Positions 1-11,170 of a stretch of DNA of 64,000 nucleotides are shown piece by piece; the first letter of the stretch is position 1; every line of letters begins with the position of its first letter. Origin of the DNA: an uncultured Clostridia bacterium. GTDB lineage: Bacteria; Bacillota; Clostridia; Oscillospirales; CAG-272. The notes beneath the pieces are model-generated. The model ran no database searches. It was not told the DNA's origin and saw only the letters and a program-made list of their open reading frames with translations. The position numbers and the translations under genes are program-made. The DNA lies in assembly GCA_947630625.1 (NCBI GenBank), contig CANRIL010000001.1, forward strand, positions 113,574 through 177,573, read 5' to 3'.

Positions 1-479
1 GGCCGTGCTATTATCACTTTGATATTTTAGCGCACACAAATTCATGGAAAACCGACGAAAATATCCGGATGCTCGCCGAATCGTTCAGAAAGCTGATGCG
101 CACCGACCGCCCCGAAAAGCAGGTCGGCGGCGACTCGTGGGTCGGCTATGTGCTCGGTACGACCGGCTGCCTCAAAGAGGGCTATCAGCTCGGATATGAC
201 GAAAACGGGATTCACTATACATATTTTGACAGAGTCGAATGGCTGTGCCGGTGCGGATGCGCGCCTTATCTCGAACAGCTGCAAAATGAGATCGAGCTCC
301 TTCTGAGCTTCGTTGACGGTGACGGCATATGCAAAGCGCCGATCGCGGAGAATCAATTGAAGGGATTCAGCACATACGGCGGGCAGCAGCTTGAAGTCGA
401 CTGGAAAACGGAGACGAGAAGATTCTGCGACATCACATTCAGGGCGCTTTTGATTTTGCATTATTCGACGCTCTATTGA
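1..479 (+). CDS. hypothetical protein, probably 5'-truncated by the window edge
   Basis: The frame of ORF 69..479 is open back to position 3; co-oriented with the downstream small genes; no recognisable motif. Confidence 0.6.
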   Translation, partial: PCYYHFDILAHTNSWKTDENIRMLAESFRKLMRTDRPEKQVGGDSWVGYVLGTTGCLKEGYQLGYDENGIHYTYFDRVEWLCRCGCAPYLEQLQNEIELLLSFVDGDGICKAPIAENQLKGFSTYGGQQLEVDWKTETRRFCDITFRALLILHYSTLY

Positions 480-529
480 TGTTTTTCGGATATGTCCGCA
501 CGGTAAATCGTATTTAGGGGGATTTGATC

Positions 530-1321
530 ATGAGCGACAGAAAAGAAATAGTGAGAGGCTTTTATGAACAATACGATGAAGACGGACGGCTGAGCAGGAC
601 CCGGCACGGTCAGCTCGAGTACAATATCACGATGACATATATTCACCGATATGCGGCAAAAGGGTCAAAGATACTTGAGATCGGCGCCGGGACGGGCAGA
701 TACTCCATGGCTCTTGCAAAAGAAGGAATGGATGTCACTTCCGTTGAACTGGTTGAAAGCAATCTCGCGGTCCTGAGAGAAAGAAGCTGTGGGATTGAGA
801 ATATTAAATCATATCAAGGGGATGCCGCCGATCTCAGCCGGTTTGCAGACGACTCATTTGATGTCACGCTGTCCTTCGGACCGATGTATCACCTCTATGA
901 AGCGGATGAAGTGAACCGTGCGATCAATGAGGCGATCCGGGTAACAAAGCCGGGCGGGGTGATGATGTTTGCGTTTATTTCCGTATTTGCGATCATGTAC
1001 GCAAACTATTTTTACGGGAACTGGGCAGCGGGACAGAAAGAAAATTTTACGGATGATCATAAAGTGAGGCATTTTAAGGAACAGCTCTTTACGGGTTATG
1101 ATGTGACCGAGTTTGAGGGACTGTTTCGGGATAAGCCGGTCGACTGGATCACAACAACGGGCGTGGACGGTCTTTTGGAGCCGATCGAAAAGCGCCCGGA
1201 TTTTTCCGTGTCGGATGAGGATTTCAAGGCTCTTGCAGAATGGTATTTGGCCTTTTCGGAAAAGCGAGAGCTGTTGGGAAATACAAACCACCTTTTGTAT
1301 ATTTGTCGGAAGAGGTCATAA
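530..1321 (+). CDS. class I SAM-dependent methyltransferase
   Basis: ILEIGAGTGRY motif I, FDVTLSFGPMYHL motif; SD AGGGGG before ATG at 530. Confidence 0.85.
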   Translation: MSDRKEIVRGFYEQYDEDGRLSRTRHGQLEYNITMTYIHRYAAKGSKILEIGAGTGRYSMALAKEGMDVTSVELVESNLAVLRERSCGIENIKSYQGDAADLSRFADDSFDVTLSFGPMYHLYEADEVNRAINEAIRVTKPGGVMMFAFISVFAIMYANYFYGNWAAGQKENFTDDHKVRHFKEQLFTGYDVTEFEGLFRDKPVDWITTTGVDGLLEPIEKRPDFSVSDEDFKALAEWYLAFSEKRELLGNTNHLLYICRKRS

Positions 1322-1382
1322 GGTGTAAAGGGAAATTTTGTCTTGTTGATGGAAAGGCAAAAACATATAAGGAAAAGAAATC

Positions 1383-1817
1383 ATGGTAATCAAGCGAGCC
1401 GCAGAATCGGAGACGGCAGATTTGGCAGCACTGGCTGCTGAAATGTGGGATAGTACTGTTTCGGAATTGACAGTTTCATTCGTGGATTTGGTGAGCAGTG
1501 AAAATTGTGCCTGCTTTATTGCATATCAGGACGATTTGCCCGTCGGATTTGCACAGTGTCAGCTTAGGCATGACTATGTAGAGGGCACAGAGACAAGTCC
1601 CGTTGGTTATTTGGAAGGAATATTTGTTAGAGAGGGATTTCGTCGGTTGGGGATTGCGTCCCGGCTTTTGACCGAATGTCAGAGGTGGGCAAAAACAAAA
1701 GGCTGTGCAGAATTTGCAAGCGATTGTGAAATAAATAATGAGGACAGTTTGAAGTTTCATTTAAAGATGGGCTTTGCGGAAGCGAATCGCATTATCTGTT
1801 TCAGCAAAAAGCTGTAA
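1383..1817 (+). CDS. aac(6'): aminoglycoside 6'-N-acetyltransferase (AAC(6')-I family GNAT)
   Basis: 144 aa; LRHDYVEGTETSPVGYLEGIFV, RRLGIA and EFASDC motifs typical of AAC(6')-Ic/Iy-like enzymes. Confidence 0.85.
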   Translation: MVIKRAAESETADLAALAAEMWDSTVSELTVSFVDLVSSENCACFIAYQDDLPVGFAQCQLRHDYVEGTETSPVGYLEGIFVREGFRRLGIASRLLTECQRWAKTKGCAEFASDCEINNEDSLKFHLKMGFAEANRIICFSKKL

Positions 1818-1878
1818 GATAAGCACGACTCTTTTCAGCTCGATTAAGAAAGTTTCGAGATATGGAAAAAAACAATAT

Positions 1879-2040
1879 ATGCGATATGATTGGATAGATT
1901 ATTCTTCATCATACAAGGAAACTGTCGATTCTTGGCTCGACGAGGATGCGGTGCGGTTTACCGGATGCGATGAAGGTTTTGATGAGTATTATCAATACTG
2001 GAAAACTGTACCGACACGGATACGATCTTGCGCAGTTTGA
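1879..2040 (+). pseudogene. truncated gene fragment (N-terminus resembles small GNAT-type proteins)
   Basis: 53-codon ORF MRYDWIDYSSSYKETVDSWLDEDAVRFTG... that reads like a protein start and then ends early; family call is tentative. Confidence 0.45.
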
Positions 2041-2151
2041 TACAAGGTGCAGGAGAATTAAAAAGTGCGCCTTTGCAGTATAGGTTTAGGGGTATATGTT
2101 GTGAGGCGGCATTTACTTTGGCGCTTATTATGATTATTAGGGGGAACGGTA

Positions 2152-2700
2152 ATGATCGATCGATCAATAATAGGTAAATCTATCTTTAAACTTGAACTTG
2201 AGGATACGGAGTGGCAATTTGAATACATAGATCATGACAGGGAGATAGCAAGAGCGATCGTTTTTGATACGGAGGGATATTACTATTTTGTAAGGGCTGT
2301 TCGTGATGACGATTTCGGGAAAGCGACTCTGATCGAGACGGCGGGAGGCGGTGTGGAAAAAGGCGAAGATCTCACCTCCGCCATCAGAAGGGAGCTAAAA
2401 GAAGAACTGGGAATAGAAGTCGATATCCTATGTAAAATCGGGGTCGTCAGCGACTACTACAATCTGATTCACCGGCATAATATAAACAATTATTTTTTAT
2501 GTAAAATATCTTCCTTTGGAGAAAAGAATCTGACACAAGATGAAATGGAGAGTTTTCATTTATCAACGCTGAAGATGTCTTATATTGAGGCAATCAAAGA
2601 ATATGAAAAACGCTCGGTGACAAGGTTGGGAAAGCTTGTTGCAAACAGAGAATTGCCCGTTTTAAAAAGGGCAAAGGAGATTATCGATAAAATCGGTTAG
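2152..2700 (+). CDS. NUDIX hydrolase
   Basis: Nudix box GGGVEKGEDLTSAIRRELKEELG. Confidence 0.88.
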   Translation: MIDRSIIGKSIFKLELEDTEWQFEYIDHDREIARAIVFDTEGYYYFVRAVRDDDFGKATLIETAGGGVEKGEDLTSAIRRELKEELGIEVDILCKIGVVSDYYNLIHRHNINNYFLCKISSFGEKNLTQDEMESFHLSTLKMSYIEAIKEYEKRSVTRLGKLVANRELPVLKRAKEIIDKIG

Positions 2701-2814
2701 TGTTTGATAATCCCTGTTTGTATCAAGACCGGCAGAAACATAGATATGATCTTGCGGAGTTTGATACGAAACCGATAAAAGAACGAAAAGTGCGTTTTGC
2801 AGGGGAGATAAACA

Positions 2815-3483
2815 GTGAATATTGCGAATAACATTCTTAAGCACTATCTGAAAAATGTATATTTTATCACGGGTACAGCCTATGCCGGAAAGTCAACAAC
2901 GGTAAAAATGCTTGCCGACAAATTTGATATGATCTTTTGCGGAGAAAACTATCACAGCGCAGTATCTGATATTGTGGCAGTACCAGATTTACAGCCGGAT
3001 ATTTGTTATCTCAATAATCTCACTGACTGGAAAGATTTTGTAACCCGCTCTCCGGAAGAATATGAGCGATGGGTGTTCAGCGTAGGAAGAGAAGCCGCAG
3101 AATTTGAAGTCGCCGAGCTTATCTCAATATCAAGAGATAAGAAAGTGATCGTGGATACTAATATTCCGATAGATGTATTAAAAGAAATATCCGATTATAA
3201 CCACGTCGCCGTTATGCTCTGCCCGCAGGCCATGAGCGTTGAACGCTTCTTTGATCGGAACGACCACGAAAAGCAATTTATATTAGATGTTATAAAAAGC
3301 TGTGACGATCCCGAAGCCGTTATGGAAAACTATCGGCGCGGACTTGCCCTTATCAACAGCAAAAAACACTATGATGAATTAGCTGACAGCGGTTTTTTCA
3401 CGATAGTCAGAGAAGATAATGGGGTAGATACCAAAGAAGAAGTCTGTGATTTAATAGCAAAGCATTTTGGTTTATACAAATAA
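2815..3483 (+). CDS. P-loop NTPase / nucleotide-kinase-like protein
   Basis: Walker A GTAYAGKST near the N-terminus; GTG start with SD GGGGAG. Confidence 0.7.
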   Translation: MNIANNILKHYLKNVYFITGTAYAGKSTTVKMLADKFDMIFCGENYHSAVSDIVAVPDLQPDICYLNNLTDWKDFVTRSPEEYERWVFSVGREAAEFEVAELISISRDKKVIVDTNIPIDVLKEISDYNHVAVMLCPQAMSVERFFDRNDHEKQFILDVIKSCDDPEAVMENYRRGLALINSKKHYDELADSGFFTIVREDNGVDTKEEVCDLIAKHFGLYK

Positions 3484-3639
3484 AGTTTCCGTTTATCAAG
3501 GAAAAGCAGACCGAAAAACTTATCACCGCTGGTGCGGTAGCGAGGAATATCTTTTTATATTAAAATCTGCCGGGACGCAGATATCATCTTACAAAGTTTT
3601 ACAGAACATCGAGACATCATTATCGAGGAGGGGAAGCGC

Positions 3640-4128
3640 ATGGAAATATGGGACGCTTATGATGAAAATTTCAATAAGATCGACAACGTGACGTTGATAC
3701 GTGGGGAAAAGCTCCCCGAAGGGCTTTTTCATTTAGTCGGCGAGATCATCGTTAAACATACAGACGGCAGTTATCTGCTGATGCAGCGTGACAGACGCAA
3801 ACATTTCGGCGGTATGTGGGAGGCAACCGCGGGAGGTTCGGCATTACGCGGAGAGACTCCGATCGAATGTGCGGCAAGAGAACTGCGGGAAGAAACCGGA
3901 ATCGTATCAGATCATCTCGTTGAAATAGGTAGAGTGAAAAACTACGAAAAAAATACGTTATATGTTGAATTCTTATGTGTGACAGACTGCAAAAAAGATT
4001 CTGTCACCTTGCAGGAAGGGGAAACAATAGCGTATAAATGGGTGAGCAGAGATGAACTCGTCTCTATGAAAAAGAGCGAACTTCTGACCGAGTGCATACA
4101 GGATTTCGTTGAAGAATTAAAATCATAA
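3640..4128 (+). CDS. NUDIX hydrolase
   Basis: Nudix box GGSALRGETPIECAARELREETG; N-terminal MEIWDAYD. Confidence 0.88.
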   Translation: MEIWDAYDENFNKIDNVTLIRGEKLPEGLFHLVGEIIVKHTDGSYLLMQRDRRKHFGGMWEATAGGSALRGETPIECAARELREETGIVSDHLVEIGRVKNYEKNTLYVEFLCVTDCKKDSVTLQEGETIAYKWVSRDELVSMKKSELLTECIQDFVEELKS

Positions 4129-4151
4129 ATTATCATTTTTATAATCCGCTC

Positions 4152-4408
4152 GAGTCATGACCACCGGCCGTGCCGGTGGCTTGCACAGGCCCCCTTAGGG
4201 CCTATTACCGGCTGAGCCTATAGGCTCGTCGAAAAAGCTTTCGCTTGCGCATCTTGCCCTACTGCTATTGAAATAGCGGTTTCTCTCTATTTCTCGCATG
4301 GATGTAATCGAATGATTCTCCATGATAGCAGGTTCCTCGCTTCGCTCGGATAGTTTTCTGTGCAAAGCTAAAGCTTTTGGAGCCACCAGCACTGCTGGTG
4401 GTTTTCAT
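4152..4408 (-). mobile_element. non-autonomous IS200/IS605-like remnant (both hairpin ends, no tnpA)
   Basis: Related subterminal hairpins CCACCGGC-CGT-GCCGGTGG (4161-4179) and CCACCAGC-ACT-GCTGGTGG (4383-4401); no transposase ORF between them; boundaries approximate. Confidence 0.65.
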
Positions 4409-4419
4409 AGGACAACATA

Positions 4420-4459
4420 ACCCCGGCATGCGGCAGATACGCATGCCGGGGTATTTTTT
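4420..4459 (+). terminator. intrinsic terminator closing the 5' gene array
   Basis: ACCCCGGCATGCG-loop-CGCATGCCGGGGT followed by ATTTTTT. Confidence 0.8.
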
Positions 4460-4578
4460 GTCTGCTCCTGCGGGACGCGGATGTGTGCTGCGCGTTCACA
4501 TTTGAGAACGGCTTATCATATAATGTCTCCGTGACGATCAGGCGCACGCTTTACGCGCGTCTTTAATGGGGTGATATT

Positions 4579-6426
4579 ATGTGCGGCATAGCCGGTTTTT
4601 CTGATTTTGAAGAAGATTATACATTTGACAGGGCAAGATGGGCGGGAGTGCTCGTCGACATGAGAAAGTCGCTCGCTCATCGCGGTCACGACCAGACCGG
4701 AGAATATCTTGACAGGCACGTGGGGCTTTCGCATACGCGCCTTTCCATCCGCGATATTTCCGGGGGAATACAGCCGATGCGCCGCTTTGCGGGCGGACGC
4801 GAATATGTCATTGTCTATAACGGTGAGGTTTATAATATGGACGAACTTGTGCCCGAACTGACGCGGCGCGGATACGTCTTTGAAACGACGAGCGACACGG
4901 AGGCGATTCTTTACGCTTATATGGAATTCGGTCTTGACTGCGCCGCGATGCTGAACGGAATTTTCGCTTTCGCGATCTGGGACGGCAGACTTGAACGGCT
5001 GGTTTTGTGCCGTGACCGCCTCGGCGTCAAGCCGCTGTTTTACGCCGAGCGCGGAGGCGAGCTGATTTTCGGCTCTGAACCGAAATCCCTTTTCTGCCAT
5101 CCGGATATCTCGCCGGAGGCTGACGACGAGAGCTTCCACGAAATCTTTGCAGTAGGTCCCGCGAGGACGCCGGGAGTCGGAGTTTTCAAGGATGTTTACG
5201 AGGTTTTGCCCGGCCACATCATGATATATGACCGCGGCGGACTTTCGGGGTTCTCATATTGGGATCTGGCGGCGCACCCGCACACCGACTCTTATGAAGA
5301 AACGGTCGAGAAGACCGGATTTTTAGTCCGTGACGCAATAATTCGGCAGATGGTTTCTGACGTGCCTGTATGCAGCTTTTTGTCGGGCGGGCTCGATTCA
5401 AGCATCATAACGGCCGTCGCGTCAGAATATATGCGCGAAAAAGGCGCTCTGCTTCACACGTTTTCCTTCGATTTTACCGAGAATGACGAGTATTTTCGAG
5501 CGAACAGCTTCCAGCCGACGCGCGACAGACCGTTTGTCGACATGCTCCTTCAGATATTAAAGGTCGATCACACATATCTTTACTGCTCGGACGAAGAGCT
5601 TGCCGATATGCTGCCGAAGGCTGTTTTGGCAAAGGACCTGCCCGGAATGACGGACGTTGACGCGTCGCTGCTTTATTTCTGCGGGCTCGTCAAGGAACAC
5701 AATAAGGTGGCGTTGACCGGCGAATGCGCCGATGAAATTTTCGGCGGATACCCTTGGTTTTATAGGCCCGAACTGCTCTACGCAGACGGGTTCCCCTGGT
5801 CGCATGACATCTCCGCGCGGACGACGCTTTTGCGCGACAGCGTGGTCGAGCGGCTTCAGCTTGACGAATACGCAAAACAGCGTTACCGTGACGCGCTCGC
5901 CCGCGTTCCTAGACTGCCGGGGGAGGACAGGGAAGCGTCTCGACGGCGCGAGGTTAGCTGCCTTAACATCCGCTGGTTCATGCAGACGCTGCTTGACAGG
6001 ATGGACCGCACGAGCATGGCGCACGGGCTCGAAGTGCGCGTTCCTTTCGCCGATCACCGCATTGTCGAATATCTCTATAACGTCCCGTGGAGCATGAAAT
6101 ATCGCGACGGCAGCGAAAAGGCGCTTCTGCGCGACGCGTGCGAGGGGCTGCTGCCGCCGCCTGTCCTTCGCCGGAAGAAGAGCCCGTATCCGAAGACGTA
6201 TAATCCAGCATATGAATCTATTCTCGCGTCGAGACTGAGGGGTGTGCTTGACGACAAAACCGCCCCGGTAAACGCTTTTCTCGACAGAGAAAAGACGGAG
6301 AGGTTCCTGTCATCCCCCAAGGATTACGGCAAGCCGTGGTTCGGTCAGCTCATGGCGGGCCCGCAGATGGTCGCCTACATCCTCCAGATAAACGACTGGA
6401 TGAAAGATTACGGCATATCATTCTGA
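4579..6426 (+). CDS. asnB: asparagine synthetase (glutamine-hydrolysing), AsnO-like
   Basis: N-terminal MCGIAG Ntn nucleophile, HRG(H)D, SGGLDSS, GECADEIFGGY, C-terminal WFGQLM. Confidence 0.93.
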   Translation: MCGIAGFSDFEEDYTFDRARWAGVLVDMRKSLAHRGHDQTGEYLDRHVGLSHTRLSIRDISGGIQPMRRFAGGREYVIVYNGEVYNMDELVPELTRRGYVFETTSDTEAILYAYMEFGLDCAAMLNGIFAFAIWDGRLERLVLCRDRLGVKPLFYAERGGELIFGSEPKSLFCHPDISPEADDESFHEIFAVGPARTPGVGVFKDVYEVLPGHIMIYDRGGLSGFSYWDLAAHPHTDSYEETVEKTGFLVRDAIIRQMVSDVPVCSFLSGGLDSSIITAVASEYMREKGALLHTFSFDFTENDEYFRANSFQPTRDRPFVDMLLQILKVDHTYLYCSDEELADMLPKAVLAKDLPGMTDVDASLLYFCGLVKEHNKVALTGECADEIFGGYPWFYRPELLYADGFPWSHDISARTTLLRDSVVERLQLDEYAKQRYRDALARVPRLPGEDREASRRREVSCLNIRWFMQTLLDRMDRTSMAHGLEVRVPFADHRIVEYLYNVPWSMKYRDGSEKALLRDACEGLLPPPVLRRKKSPYPKTYNPAYESILASRLRGVLDDKTAPVNAFLDREKTERFLSSPKDYGKPWFGQLMAGPQMVAYILQINDWMKDYGISF

Positions 6427-9131: not shown

Positions 9132-11170
9132 GCGTATCTATGTACCCAAAACTCGCCTTCCGCGGTATATGGAAAAACAAGAAGCTTTATATTCCGTATA
9201 TCCTGACAGCCGTCGGCATGGTCGCGATGTACTATATCGTCACGTCCGTCTCATATTCGGACGGGATCAGAAATATAAGCGGCGGGGACACGATAGTTGA
9301 GATATTGTCGTTCGGTTCCGTCATCATGGCGATTTTCGCGGCGATATTCCTCTTTTATTCAAGCTCGTTTCTGATGCGGCGCCGCCAGCGCGAATTCGGA
9401 CTTTACAATATCCTCGGCATGGGCAAGCGGCACATCGGCATGATAATGCTGATCGAAACAGCGTTCACTGCGGCGATCTCGCTTGTGTTCGGGTTTATTT
9501 TCGGCATAGCGTTTTCAAAGCTGGCGGAGGCGGGGATACATTATATAATGAAAACGGAGGTCGGATACGAGCTCACGGTGTCGTTTGAGGCGATCCTTTC
9601 GGCTATCCCGATTTTCGCCCTCATATTTGCCGTCATCTTAGTTTTCACGCTCCTTCGCGTGCGCATGTCAAATCCGATAGCGCTTCTTCACAGCGAAAAC
9701 GCCGGAGAGCGTCCGCCGAAGGGAAACCCGCTTATCGCGATCATCGGCGTCATACTTATCGGCGCAGCGTATTATATCGCGCTGACGACGGAGAATCCGA
9801 TATTAGCGCTGGCGCTCTTCTTTGCCGCTGTCGTTATGGTCATCGTCGGGACGTACGCGCTCTTTATCTCAGGCTCAGTCGTGATGTGCCGGCTGCTCAA
9901 GCGGAACAAAAAATATTATTATAAGCCCGAAAATTTCATATCCGTTTCGTCGATGTCCTTCCGCATGAAGCGCAACGGCGCGGGGCTTGCCTCGATCTGC
10001 ATTCTTCTGACGATGGTCCTCGTGATGCTCACGGCAACGTTTTCGCTTTATTCGAGCGAGGAAGACATAATAAGGTCGTCTTATCCGCGCGCGCTGATGT
10101 GTGAGTCCGCCTTCTGGACGTTTGAAGAATTTGAAAACGACAAAACGGCGGAATCGTTCCGCAAGGCGGCATTTGCAGCGCTTGAAAATGCCGGATGCGA
10201 GCCCGAAAACGAATATTTCTTCCGCATGGCGTATATGATCTCGACAATGATCGACGGCGAATTTTATTCATTTAACGACGTTGAAGCCGGCGTAGATATT
10301 GAGGATTATTACCAGGCAAATGGAACATACAACTTATATATGATGCCCGTTCGCGACTATAACGACATGTACGGAACAGACTATAAGCTCGCCGACGACG
10401 AGGCGCTCATTTATTCTGTTTATTCGATGGGCACCGAATATAAGGACGACGTGGTAAAGATCGGACACATTGGCGAATATAAAGTCGTCGGCCACGTAGA
10501 TGAAATGCTTGACTGCGACAGGATAACGATAAGCGCTTTTCCGACGCTTATTGTGATAATGAATAACGTCGGGAAAAATTTCGAACCGCTGAGCGGCTTT
10601 GCTACGAGGTATTATTATTACGGCTACGACGTTGCCGAGGGAACAGAGAGGGCGGCTCAGGAGGCGATATACAATATCGAATTGACAAAGGACGGAAATG
10701 AAAATTTCCCCGGACTGTCAACGCTTTCAACCTCATCAAGAGAACGCGACCGGATAGATTTCTTTTCGATGTACGGCGGAATATTCTTTCTCGGTGTGAT
10801 GCTTTCGATCATGTTCATGCTCGCGGCTGTGCTTATCATCTACTATAAGCAGATCTCCGAAGGATACGAGGATTCCGGCAGATTTGAAATAATGCAGAAG
10901 GTCGGGCTGACAAAAAAGGACATCAGGCGAAGTATAGACGCGCAGATGAGGACGGTGTTCGTGCTGCCTATCGCGGCGGCGGCGCTCCATCTCGCCTTCG
11001 CGTTCCCGATGCTCAAGCGAATGCTTTTGATGTTCAATTTTAAAAACTGTCCGCTGCTCCTTTTGACGGCGGCGATGTGCGTGCTGATATTCGCGGCGAT
11101 ATACCTCATCGTATATAAACTGACCGCGGGCGCGTATTACCGCATCGTCAGCGGCGGCGAAAGAGAATAA
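9128..11170 (+). CDS. ABC transporter permease (BceB/FtsX-like)
   Basis: Multiple TM helices, REFGLYNILGM, large extracellular loop, IIYYKQISEG. Confidence 0.9.
   Translation: MSVSMYPKLAFRGIWKNKKLYIPYILTAVGMVAMYYIVTSVSYSDGIRNISGGDTIVEILSFGSVIMAIFAAIFLFYSSSFLMRRRQREFGLYNILGMGKRHIGMIMLIETAFTAAISLVFGFIFGIAFSKLAEAGIHYIMKTEVGYELTVSFEAILSAIPIFALIFAVILVFTLLRVRMSNPIALLHSENAGERPPKGNPLIAIIGVILIGAAYYIALTTENPILALALFFAAVVMVIVGTYALFISGSVVMCRLLKRNKKYYYKPENFISVSSMSFRMKRNGAGLASICILLTMVLVMLTATFSLYSSEEDIIRSSYPRALMCESAFWTFEEFENDKTAESFRKAAFAALENAGCEPENEYFFRMAYMISTMIDGEFYSFNDVEAGVDIEDYYQANGTYNLYMMPVRDYNDMYGTDYKLADDEALIYSVYSMGTEYKDDVVKIGHIGEYKVVGHVDEMLDCDRITISAFPTLIVIMNNVGKNFEPLSGFATRYYYYGYDVAEGTERAAQEAIYNIELTKDGNENFPGLSTLSTSSRERDRIDFFSMYGGIFFLGVMLSIMFMLAAVLIIYYKQISEGYEDSGRFEIMQKVGLTKKDIRRSIDAQMRTVFVLPIAAAALHLAFAFPMLKRMLLMFNFKNCPLLLLTAAMCVLIFAAIYLIVYKLTAGAYYRIVSGGERE

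Follow-up and report, generated by a model that had tools for sequence, protein, structure and literature searches.

The first 4,140 nucleotides (nt) of a 64,000-nt stretch of DNA from an uncultured Clostridia bacterium (contig CANRIL010000001.1; the whole stretch is called the window here) carry seven small genes or gene fragments on the plus strand. Comparison with other genomes suggests that positions 1–4140 probably belong to a family of cassette arrays in gut Clostridia, co-oriented and with one gene per cassette, and that this member is decaying. A repeated sequence in these arrays, called R here, is an attP-type (phage attachment) site for a family of large serine recombinases (LSRs).

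The repeat R in the window

A repeat search revealed three co-oriented direct copies of R (c1, c2 and c3) in the spacers before the last three genes (Table 1). When the whole genome was searched with a hidden Markov model (HMM) of R, nhmmer recovered these copies at E-values of 4.5e-14, 2.8e-17 and 8.5e-7, respectively. Copy c2 matches the HMM on the minus strand too, and its centre is most likely the GA at 2743–2744. Its DNA fold gave a z-score of −3.2, in keeping with a palindrome; c1 and c3 (both z = −0.8) showed no palindromic fold, and c3 is 67% identical to c1 over a 30-nt core. The first NUDIX gene (NUDIX1) and the P-loop gene occupy one inter-R interval each.

A sequence-only reading of this DNA had proposed another repeat, the loose motif AA(A/G)T-N4-5-(T/C)TT(A/G/T) after several stop codons, as a short recombination site. 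The motif occurs nine times in 1–4140, against 3.07 ± 1.78 in 500 dinucleotide shuffles, of which four reach nine; the test is circular, as the motif came from the same sequence. One cited site, at 2708, does not match the pattern itself. Two matches absent from the list, at 2063 and 2788, fall inside R, and the sites at 2708 and 3481 touch the outer edge of its left arm. The true repeat is R, and in place of a short site it has a palindrome of ~60 bp plus up to ~150 nt of conserved extension. The gene list, the low G+C content, the short spacers and the single terminator at 4420–4452 given by the same reading were borne out by scans of open reading frames (ORFs), domains, composition and terminators.

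Gene order varies among relatives. We searched 61 genomes (G000 included), and some part of positions 1–4600 was matched in 22 of them and in 9 of 18 within the genus. Orthologues of the 359-amino-acid (aa) hypothetical protein at the start of the window, 85–86% identical, are present in four genomes of the genus, and the content downstream of the gene is different in each. It is followed by a methyltransferase gene, R and a 295-aa gene in G006, and by another methyltransferase gene and then a NUDIX-like gene in G007. In G011 a NUDIX-like gene, a full R, a methyltransferase start remnant and an HNH gene follow, and in G002 a NUDIX-like gene and then a left-half site. The asnB gene was found downstream of the orthologue in none of the four, within the 1.1 to 9.8 kb examined. 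Gene order is thus not fixed. A conserved operon of accessory enzymes, with repeats arising by chance or from low complexity, would fit the single terminator and the lack of a detectable R between the first four genes. This explanation is very improbable and already contradicted, since R reaches E-values of 1e-17 in the genome, has 81 instances elsewhere and sits among genes whose order varies within the genus.

R as an attachment site

Alignment of 20 full copies showed that R (P-GA-P′) is an imperfect palindrome of ~60 bp followed by a conserved extension. It has the imperfect dyad symmetry of ~50–60 bp around a central dinucleotide that is expected of an attP-type site, and the DNA fold of a copy from locus L079 has a z-score of −5.2. 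Two subtypes could be identified, a ..AATAATCTTACCGAG.. type and a ..TATAATCTTGCAGAG.. type. In some copies the extension contains a stop codon and a terminator, and in others an extended −10 element of the TGTGGTAYNAT type and a conserved leader.

The clearest case is an isolate chromosome, G437, in which a 58.8-kb prophage is flanked by two halves of R and splits hsdM. The right half, P′ (L057, ~3985), stands directly after ...S-I-Y-(D) of hsdM and reads hsdM-N...TAT-GA-P′. The left half, P (L137, ~1500), stands directly before (D)-P-T-C-G-S and the rest of hsdM and reads P-GA-TCC.... The gene is split as ...Y-D|P-T-C-G-S, and GA are the only letters that the junctions share. A phage record that matches this prophage encodes a 523-aa LSR. 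The two halves thus lie at opposite ends of an LSR-encoding element, with a split target and a 2-nt overlap. Junctions that share only GA are what attP × attB recombination leaves behind when a serine integrase uses a 2-nt overlap; the full palindrome is thus attP-type, and the halves are attL/attR-type.

Phage records agree with this assignment. A blastn search of such records placed R at the ends of two Candidatus Heliusvirales records. In one, R is followed by a repressor-like helix-turn-helix (HTH) gene and, 3 kb in, by the 523-aa LSR, which has Resolvase, Recombinase and Zn_ribbon_recom domains. In the other, R truncates an MmeI-family gene. Taken together, the sequence comparisons identify R as the attP-type site of an LSR family carried by temperate Heliusvirales-type phages and small elements. 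A pattern scan of IMG/VR gave two matches only, both of the junction type, and free attP was seen in no viral contig; a blastn search of PLSDB plasmids with a 206-nt R gave no match.

The targets are methyltransferase genes. We scanned 58 of 67 candidate ORFs that end at R (the remainder were duplicates or previously scanned), and 12 of the 58 proved to be methyltransferase N-termini: six HsdM, four MmeI, one N6_N4 and one RlmL/THUMP. Several more R-ended ORFs with no Pfam match end, by reading, in ...IYID. The codons hit by integration are those for Asp-Pro in the DPPY / DPxCGSG motif, in DNA methyltransferases of several classes and in one class of RNA methyltransferase (HsdM, MmeI, Mod-like, N6_N4 and RlmL/THUMP). 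Besides the G437 pair, examples are L065, L076, L098, L104, L119, L078 and L114. Immediately past the junction, the element adds a tail of 21 codons that ends in a stop, and then a terminator. Integration into this motif should inactivate the host restriction-modification system.

Two other origins of R were considered. A coding remnant or leader peptide (..RYxLAEFDTKP..) was dropped, as the palindrome and the prophage ends explain the conservation. Abutted terminal repeats of insertion sequences (IS) or of miniature inverted-repeat transposable elements were rejected, as no transposase is linked to R and its halves flank an LSR prophage.

Arrays of R in other genomes

Scanning species-representative genomes for the R pattern yielded 86 stretches, with 81 unique instances of R. 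Apart from the isolate chromosome G437, these are mostly in metagenome-assembled genomes (MAGs) from the rabbit gut, titled Clostridia, Oscillospiraceae, Lachnospiraceae and others. When 80 non-redundant loci were searched by nhmmer, 54 had one R hit, 16 had two, six had three, one had four and three had five, so that 26 of the 80 hold two to five. Five co-oriented sites each are present in L072, L079 and L089, and four in L117. No adjacent pair of mixed orientation occurs in the 80 loci. The 41 intervals between R sites measure 394–1370 nt and hold one main ORF each, and the largest ORF is on the strand of R in 40 of them; the exception is an interval of L093 that contains an 89%-identical copy of the P-loop cassette. 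The cassettes are thus co-oriented and mostly of a single gene, as in integrons and in clusters of attC sites lacking integron integrases (CALINs). In a typical array a right-half junction comes first, full sites lie inside and a left half comes last. The left half at the array end is followed by GA-(T)CCNCC..., which is a remnant of the methyltransferase motif.

Cargo was tallied for the first gene after R in 40 of 41 candidate loci. GNAT genes are the most frequent (9/40), followed by class-I methyltransferase (3/40), NUDIX, MarR and HTH_3 (2/40 each) and twelve other families seen once each; ten genes had no family. Small co-oriented cassettes with typical cargo (GNAT, NUDIX, methyltransferase, AAC(6′)) would also be expected of a classical integron array, or of a CALIN, relying on IntI and attC. 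This possibility has next to no probability and is already contradicted. The contig has no tyrosine recombinase, R has no RYYYAAC...GTTRRRY cores, an Rfam scan of positions 1–5000 was empty at E ≤ 1, and R is split at the ends of an LSR-encoding prophage. The sequence-only reading had proposed an integron-like array in which no attC structure could be seen. Its array is indeed of the cassette type and no fixed operon, and attC is indeed absent from the Rfam scan and from the R consensus; the IntI/attC type does not apply, as the sites are palindromes of the attP type that belong to a serine recombinase family.

A different proposal is that R is mainly a portable regulatory module, kept by selection upstream of stress and detoxification genes, and that its likeness to attP is secondary. 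The extension, with its stop codon and terminator or its extended −10 and leader, is of this kind, and the genes always follow on the strand of R. Such a module fails to account for the left arm of the palindrome, for half sites where a prophage ends, for truncated methyltransferases and for breakpoints clustered at the centre, and R matches no Rfam family. As a main explanation we consider it quite improbable, although a regulatory function could coexist with the cassette arrays that we favour.

Breakpoints and movement between hosts

The 122 non-redundant R hits comprise 44 full sites, 58 right halves, 12 left halves and 8 extensions only. Of the right halves, 30 start at HMM positions 42–45, within three positions of the centre, and 8 of the 12 left halves end at positions 45–46, at the centre. 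A comparison of G011 with G002 revealed a single unit, made of a right half, a leader, the HNH gene and a degenerate left half, that is inserted exactly at the GA of the left-half site (P-GA-B′) of G002. As judged from these alignments of related arrays, breakpoints cluster at the centre of R.

Similar units occur in distant hosts. The P-loop cassette of the window, together with its flanking parts of R, has counterparts in L093 (89% identity over 788 nt) and L069 (88% over 753 nt); in L069 the similarity sets in at the centre of a junction-type R. A gene of L072 that has R on both sides matches the second NUDIX gene (NUDIX2) at 81% identity over 498 nt. The asnB and two-component genes of those same genomes are only 64–77% identical, over 78–533 nt. 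Cassettes at 81–89% and core genes at 64–77% argue that cassette units moved between distant hosts, which have such units in common.

The strongest competing explanation is accretion without cassette mobility. Here, R sites would be scars left as LSR phages, or small integrative elements with cargo beside attP, repeatedly integrated and decayed; arrays would arise and be reshuffled by homologous recombination and deletion only, and a single cassette would be no unit of site-specific transfer. R halves are found at prophage ends, the window has ordinary deletion junctions, a cognate LSR is absent from many array genomes, and R copies are 80–90% identical over 60–200 nt, which suffices for RecA. 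On the other hand, an integrated element splits attP and should leave halves as scars, yet 44 of the 122 hits are full palindromes between single genes. The intervals are one gene long in 41 of 41, and both the G011/G002 indel and the half sites end at the GA centre and not anywhere in the homologous stretch. We regard accretion alone as unlikely.

Proposed mechanism and its weaknesses

In the arrays of mobile cassettes that we favour, the order in an intact array is, for each cassette, right half (P′), conserved extension, one gene and left half (P) of the next site. Cassettes would be gained and lost by breakage and joining at the GA centre of R. The likeliest route may be a circle with one attP-type site that is recombined by an LSR supplied in trans; homologous recombination between near-identical copies of R would be a second route. 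Array growth could occur through recombination at R sites already in place, or through homologous exchange from one copy of R to another. The array of the window keeps one full and two degraded sites, and its first four genes would have lost theirs. A deletion has apparently fused the GNAT gene to a copy of R, and an unrelated 281-nt element has been inserted at the distal end. Expression of the genes would rely on their individual leaders or on read-through as far as the terminator at 4420. The array is probably immobile now, because its sites are eroded and its genome has no cognate recombinase.

Several observations weigh against this reading. Some concern the window itself. There is no detectable site between its first four genes: the R HMM gave no match, even at E ≤ 50, in the spacers 480–523, 1322–1382, 1818–1900 and 4129–4200, and no site remnant was found in 3484–3545 either. 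A left arm at 1333–1370, suggested by eye, was unsupported by this search. Six relatives contain genes homologous to those for AAC(6′), GNAT, the P-loop protein and the methyltransferase, with no R nearby. Copy c1 is joined to codon ~45 of the GNAT gene, where the intact gene of G010 reads ...N-D-P.... The simplest reading of the aligned sequences is that c1/GNAT is an ordinary deletion, because the junction is not clean at the centre of R.

The recombinase is the second difficulty. The sequence-only reading had expected one upstream of the window, and none exists on the 182-kb contig (C1), including the 113 kb upstream. Neither Recombinase (PF07508) nor Phage_integrase (PF00589) was found on C1; the matches to Phage_integrase are on C21 (two), C4 and C47 only. 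A weak R-extension remnant (13.8 bits) was found 50–90 nt before the start codon of the 359-aa gene. The genome has two LSRs of its own, on contigs C52 and C20, which share only 31–33% identity with the R-linked one. An LSR at ≥56% identity was found in only two of five array-bearing genomes, with a fragment in one more.

The third difficulty is the reaction. Phage serine integrases act on attP and attB; to recombine attL with attR they need a directionality factor. Arrays with full sites would need attP × attP or attP × attR activity, multi-cassette circles or RecA, and this is a weak point of the proposal. The Ccr and TnpX enzymes are more permissive. Movement is deduced from comparisons only, as no excised circle and no recombination event was observed. 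Finally, nearly all instances of R come from MAGs of one collection, where binning errors and sampling bias are possible.

Along with the variable gene order, variant joints in metagenome contigs favour the array reading, although not all of them count. Joints from R to R were found at 2005→2740, 2031→3593 and 2084→2811, and others at 436→2736, 1311→2596 and 2754→4057. All of these have sides of 23–30 nt and are not counted as evidence, since such joints may stem from other R-bearing organisms or from repeats. One contig (run X9) joins 1312 to 1877 and skips AAC(6′), with a side of 38.

Two genomes have paired LSR genes. They lie side by side at G440:C9:87747–90772 and G442:C34:8858–11679, and one of each pair is 56–60% and the other 41–43% identical to the R-linked LSR. 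No R was found within their 1.5-kb flanks. The pairs recall the integrase doublets and triplets of streptococcal integrative and conjugative elements (ICEs).

Summed contig depth over 2773–3542 (the P-loop cassette) is several-fold above that of its neighbours in all of runs X5, X7, X9 and X11, and over 925–1386 (the methyltransferase gene) it is so in two of them. Depth is not copy number here, and the higher values suggest that these two units are in more organisms of those samples.

Features of the window

Table 1. Features of the array at the start of the window and of its flank.
Feature	Position	Strand	Evidence or remark
Hypothetical gene, 359 aa, 3′ part in window (last 158 codons)	1..479	+	ORF
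Cassette leader remnant GGATAT...GGTAAATCG...AGG	486..523	+	likeness by eye to leaders of other cassettes
Class-I S-adenosylmethionine (SAM) methyltransferase	524..1321	+	Methyltransf_11, 2.3e-18
AAC(6′) aminoglycoside acetyltransferase (predicted)	1383..1817	+	NF043067 AAC_6p_group_E, 184.8 bits, cut-off 140
Truncated GNAT fragment, N-terminal 45 codons of a 156-aa gene	1879..2013	+	tblastn of intact G010 gene
R copy c1: right (P′) arm, extension, ~12 nt of inner left arm	2003..2086	+	nhmmer, HMM positions 28–112, E 1.3e-14
NUDIX hydrolase cassette gene 1 (NUDIX1)	2152..2700	+	PF00293, 1.8e-10; between c1 and c2, same strand
R copy c2: full imperfect palindrome, shortened extension	2710..2802	+	nhmmer, HMM positions 11–104, E 1.4e-17
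P-loop (Walker A) protein cassette gene	2815..3483	+	no family above cut-off
Start of left (P) arm, 3′ end of P-loop cassette	3484..3499	+	homology to L093
R copy c3, degenerate	3544..3621	+	nhmmer, HMM positions 8–85, E 2.4e-7
NUDIX hydrolase cassette gene 2 (NUDIX2)	3640..4128	+	PF00293, 7.9e-18
Highly structured 281-nt repeat element, inserted, outside the cassette system	4140..4420	+	fold z = −9.5 (folded as 4145–4455)
Intrinsic terminator closing the array, ahead of asnB	4420..4452	+	13-bp stem, 10 G-C pairs, then T-run
asnB	4579–6426		beyond the array terminator

The array lies between the hypothetical gene and asnB. Its G+C content is 0.37–0.46 over 1200–4000 and that of asnB and beyond is 0.51–0.62 (4400–6400). 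The terminator that closes it is the sole strong one on the plus strand.

The 359-aa gene starts 600 nt before the window. Scans of Pfam and NCBIfam gave no match for its product, and a search of PDB sequences with this protein and the P-loop protein gave nothing below E = 0.1. Homologues of the gene adjoin R elsewhere, on both sides in L044 and downstream in L084, and it is a cassette gene there. The methyltransferase gene has a copy of R directly 3′ in G006. The NF043067 match spans residues 8–144 of the 144 aa of the next product, and its score, above the curated equivalog cut-off, assigns the predicted protein to the AAC(6′) family. A 70% identical homologue is a single cassette within a Mod-type gene in L114. 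When the intact 156-aa GNAT gene of G010, from the same genus, was used in tblastn, the window matched residues 1–45 only, and the C-terminal part was found nowhere in the genome. Homology of the P-loop cassette to L093 extends to 3499, which corresponds to 3967 of L093, inside its R at 3950–4063. The left arm expected 3′ of NUDIX2 is missing, and the 281-nt structured element is in its place.

This element has similar hairpins near both ends. No Rfam match was found in 1–5000 at E ≤ 1, and no tRNA or tmRNA in 4100–4500. Relatives contain several copies, 80–95% identical; some lie at the end of a contig, or next to a transposase of the IS3 type or a tyrosine integrase. A metagenome contig (run X7) joins 4139 to 4421, precisely without the element, with a side of 101. 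Our guess is that it is a non-autonomous IS200/IS605-type element, similar to palindrome-associated transposable elements, or else an unclassified non-coding RNA.

In many cassettes, for example downstream of R in L093, L063 and L017, a conserved leader, GGATAT...GCCCGGTAAATCG...ATTT.AGG, follows the promoter-like part of the R extension and precedes the start codon. The ~40-nt remnant seen by eye at 486–523 directly precedes the start codon of the methyltransferase gene; the copy in the window has no Rfam match.

Contig C6 of G000 contains a solitary, degenerate right-half copy of R at 1364–1434 on the minus strand (E 1.9e-8). The stop codon of a 109-aa HTH gene immediately precedes this copy, and a terminator comes next. 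At 9963–13384 of L003, 10–14 kb upstream of the window, two class-I aminoacyl-tRNA synthetase genes of the Glu/Gln type (581 and 559 aa) are adjacent, and a gene for a TMEM164-family membrane protein follows; this looks like ordinary core context.

Significance and comparison with known systems

How small accessory genes are shuffled in Firmicutes is poorly understood, and integrons are not known from this group. If true, a serine-recombinase system of attP-type arrays would offer a testable route by which single genes, including acetyltransferases of the aminoglycoside-resistance type, spread between families of gut Clostridia. The results also point to a family of phages and elements that insert at the catalytic or SAM-binding motif in DNA methyltransferases of several classes, and such insertion should switch off host restriction-modification. 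The R site and its recombinase family are defined well enough for direct recombination assays. For the window itself the message is more modest, as it would be an eroded and probably immobile copy.

We tentatively suggest, as possible rather than probable, that gut Clostridia have a second, independent capture system that is analogous to integrons. An LSR encoded by a phage or other element would act in trans on one-gene, attP-type cassettes that land in the methyltransferase D-P motif, disable restriction-modification and build up into co-oriented arrays; the arrays, with AAC(6′) among their cargo, would spread between families. Our literature searches on serine-recombinase cassette arrays or similar found no description of such arrays. 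The main text of the Heliusvirales paper makes no mention of an integrase, attachment, an integration site or a recombinase (PMC11283538).

Staphylococcal cassette chromosome (SCC) composite islands are tandem series of elements, some with recombinase genes and some lacking them, that have repeated att sequences at their boundaries. SCCmec, psi-SCC and the enterococcal cassette chromosome (ECC), which use CcrAB/C, are similar to R arrays in that an LSR inserts circular "cassettes" into a gene-borne attB; the ECC is described as LSR-driven (PMC6222049). SCC and ECC elements measure tens of kb, carry many genes and target rlmH, whereas R units measure 0.4–1.4 kb, carry one gene and target methyltransferases at DPPY/DPxCG. 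The units of R arrays are, in addition, separated by full attP-type palindromes. The array of the window is not of the SCC type: no ccr-type LSR lies within or beside it, with PF07508 absent from C1, and its position is not in rlmH.

Serine-integrase phages and ICEs that disrupt genes resemble the R-bearing prophage, which integrates inside hsdM through an LSR with a 2-nt overlap. Known cases of gene disruption are A118 in comK, SPbeta SprA in spsM and Streptococcus ICEs in rumA. They are not reported to leave single-gene arrays between intact attP-type sites, unlike R, and they differ from the R att family, which hits the same motif in several methyltransferase classes. Streptococcal ICEs reportedly use serine integrases to enter hsdM and mutT, with direct repeats of 2–8 bp as a result (PMC4701971).

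Other mobile elements can be compared at the level of the unit. R cassettes carry no recombinase, whereas elements of the Tn4451/Tn5397 type have their own recombinase and several genes. Their enzymes, TnpX and TndX, are clostridial LSRs that excise circles with a GA dinucleotide at the joint, for which we found no confirming paper. Cis-mobilizable elements (CIMEs) are recombinase-less units flanked by att sites, mobilisable in trans and capable of tandem accretion. R cassettes are likewise recombinase-less and flanked by att sites, but CIMEs depend on tyrosine integrases and on att identity segments at the 3′ ends of tRNA or other genes, and they do not form series of up to five one-gene units.

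The closest likeness is to integrons. Both systems have co-oriented, mostly single-gene cassettes bounded by an imperfectly palindromic site, and genes for GNAT and NUDIX proteins, methyltransferases and aminoglycoside acetyltransferases abound in the cargo of both. CALIN arrays have no nearby integrase, as is the case here. The attC site is defined by its cores, RYYYAAC ... GTTRRRY. No such cores stand at the cassette boundaries of the window, no GTTRRRY is present at the 3′ edge of the R alignment, and no IntI-type tyrosine recombinase lies beside the array. R differs from attC in its conserved sequence (80–90% identity) and in its identity with an LSR attP. The crossover would be at the centre of the palindrome in R, in contrast to one edge in attC. 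R arrays are organised without a platform integrase or attI, and many of their cassettes carry a promoter-like leader of their own.

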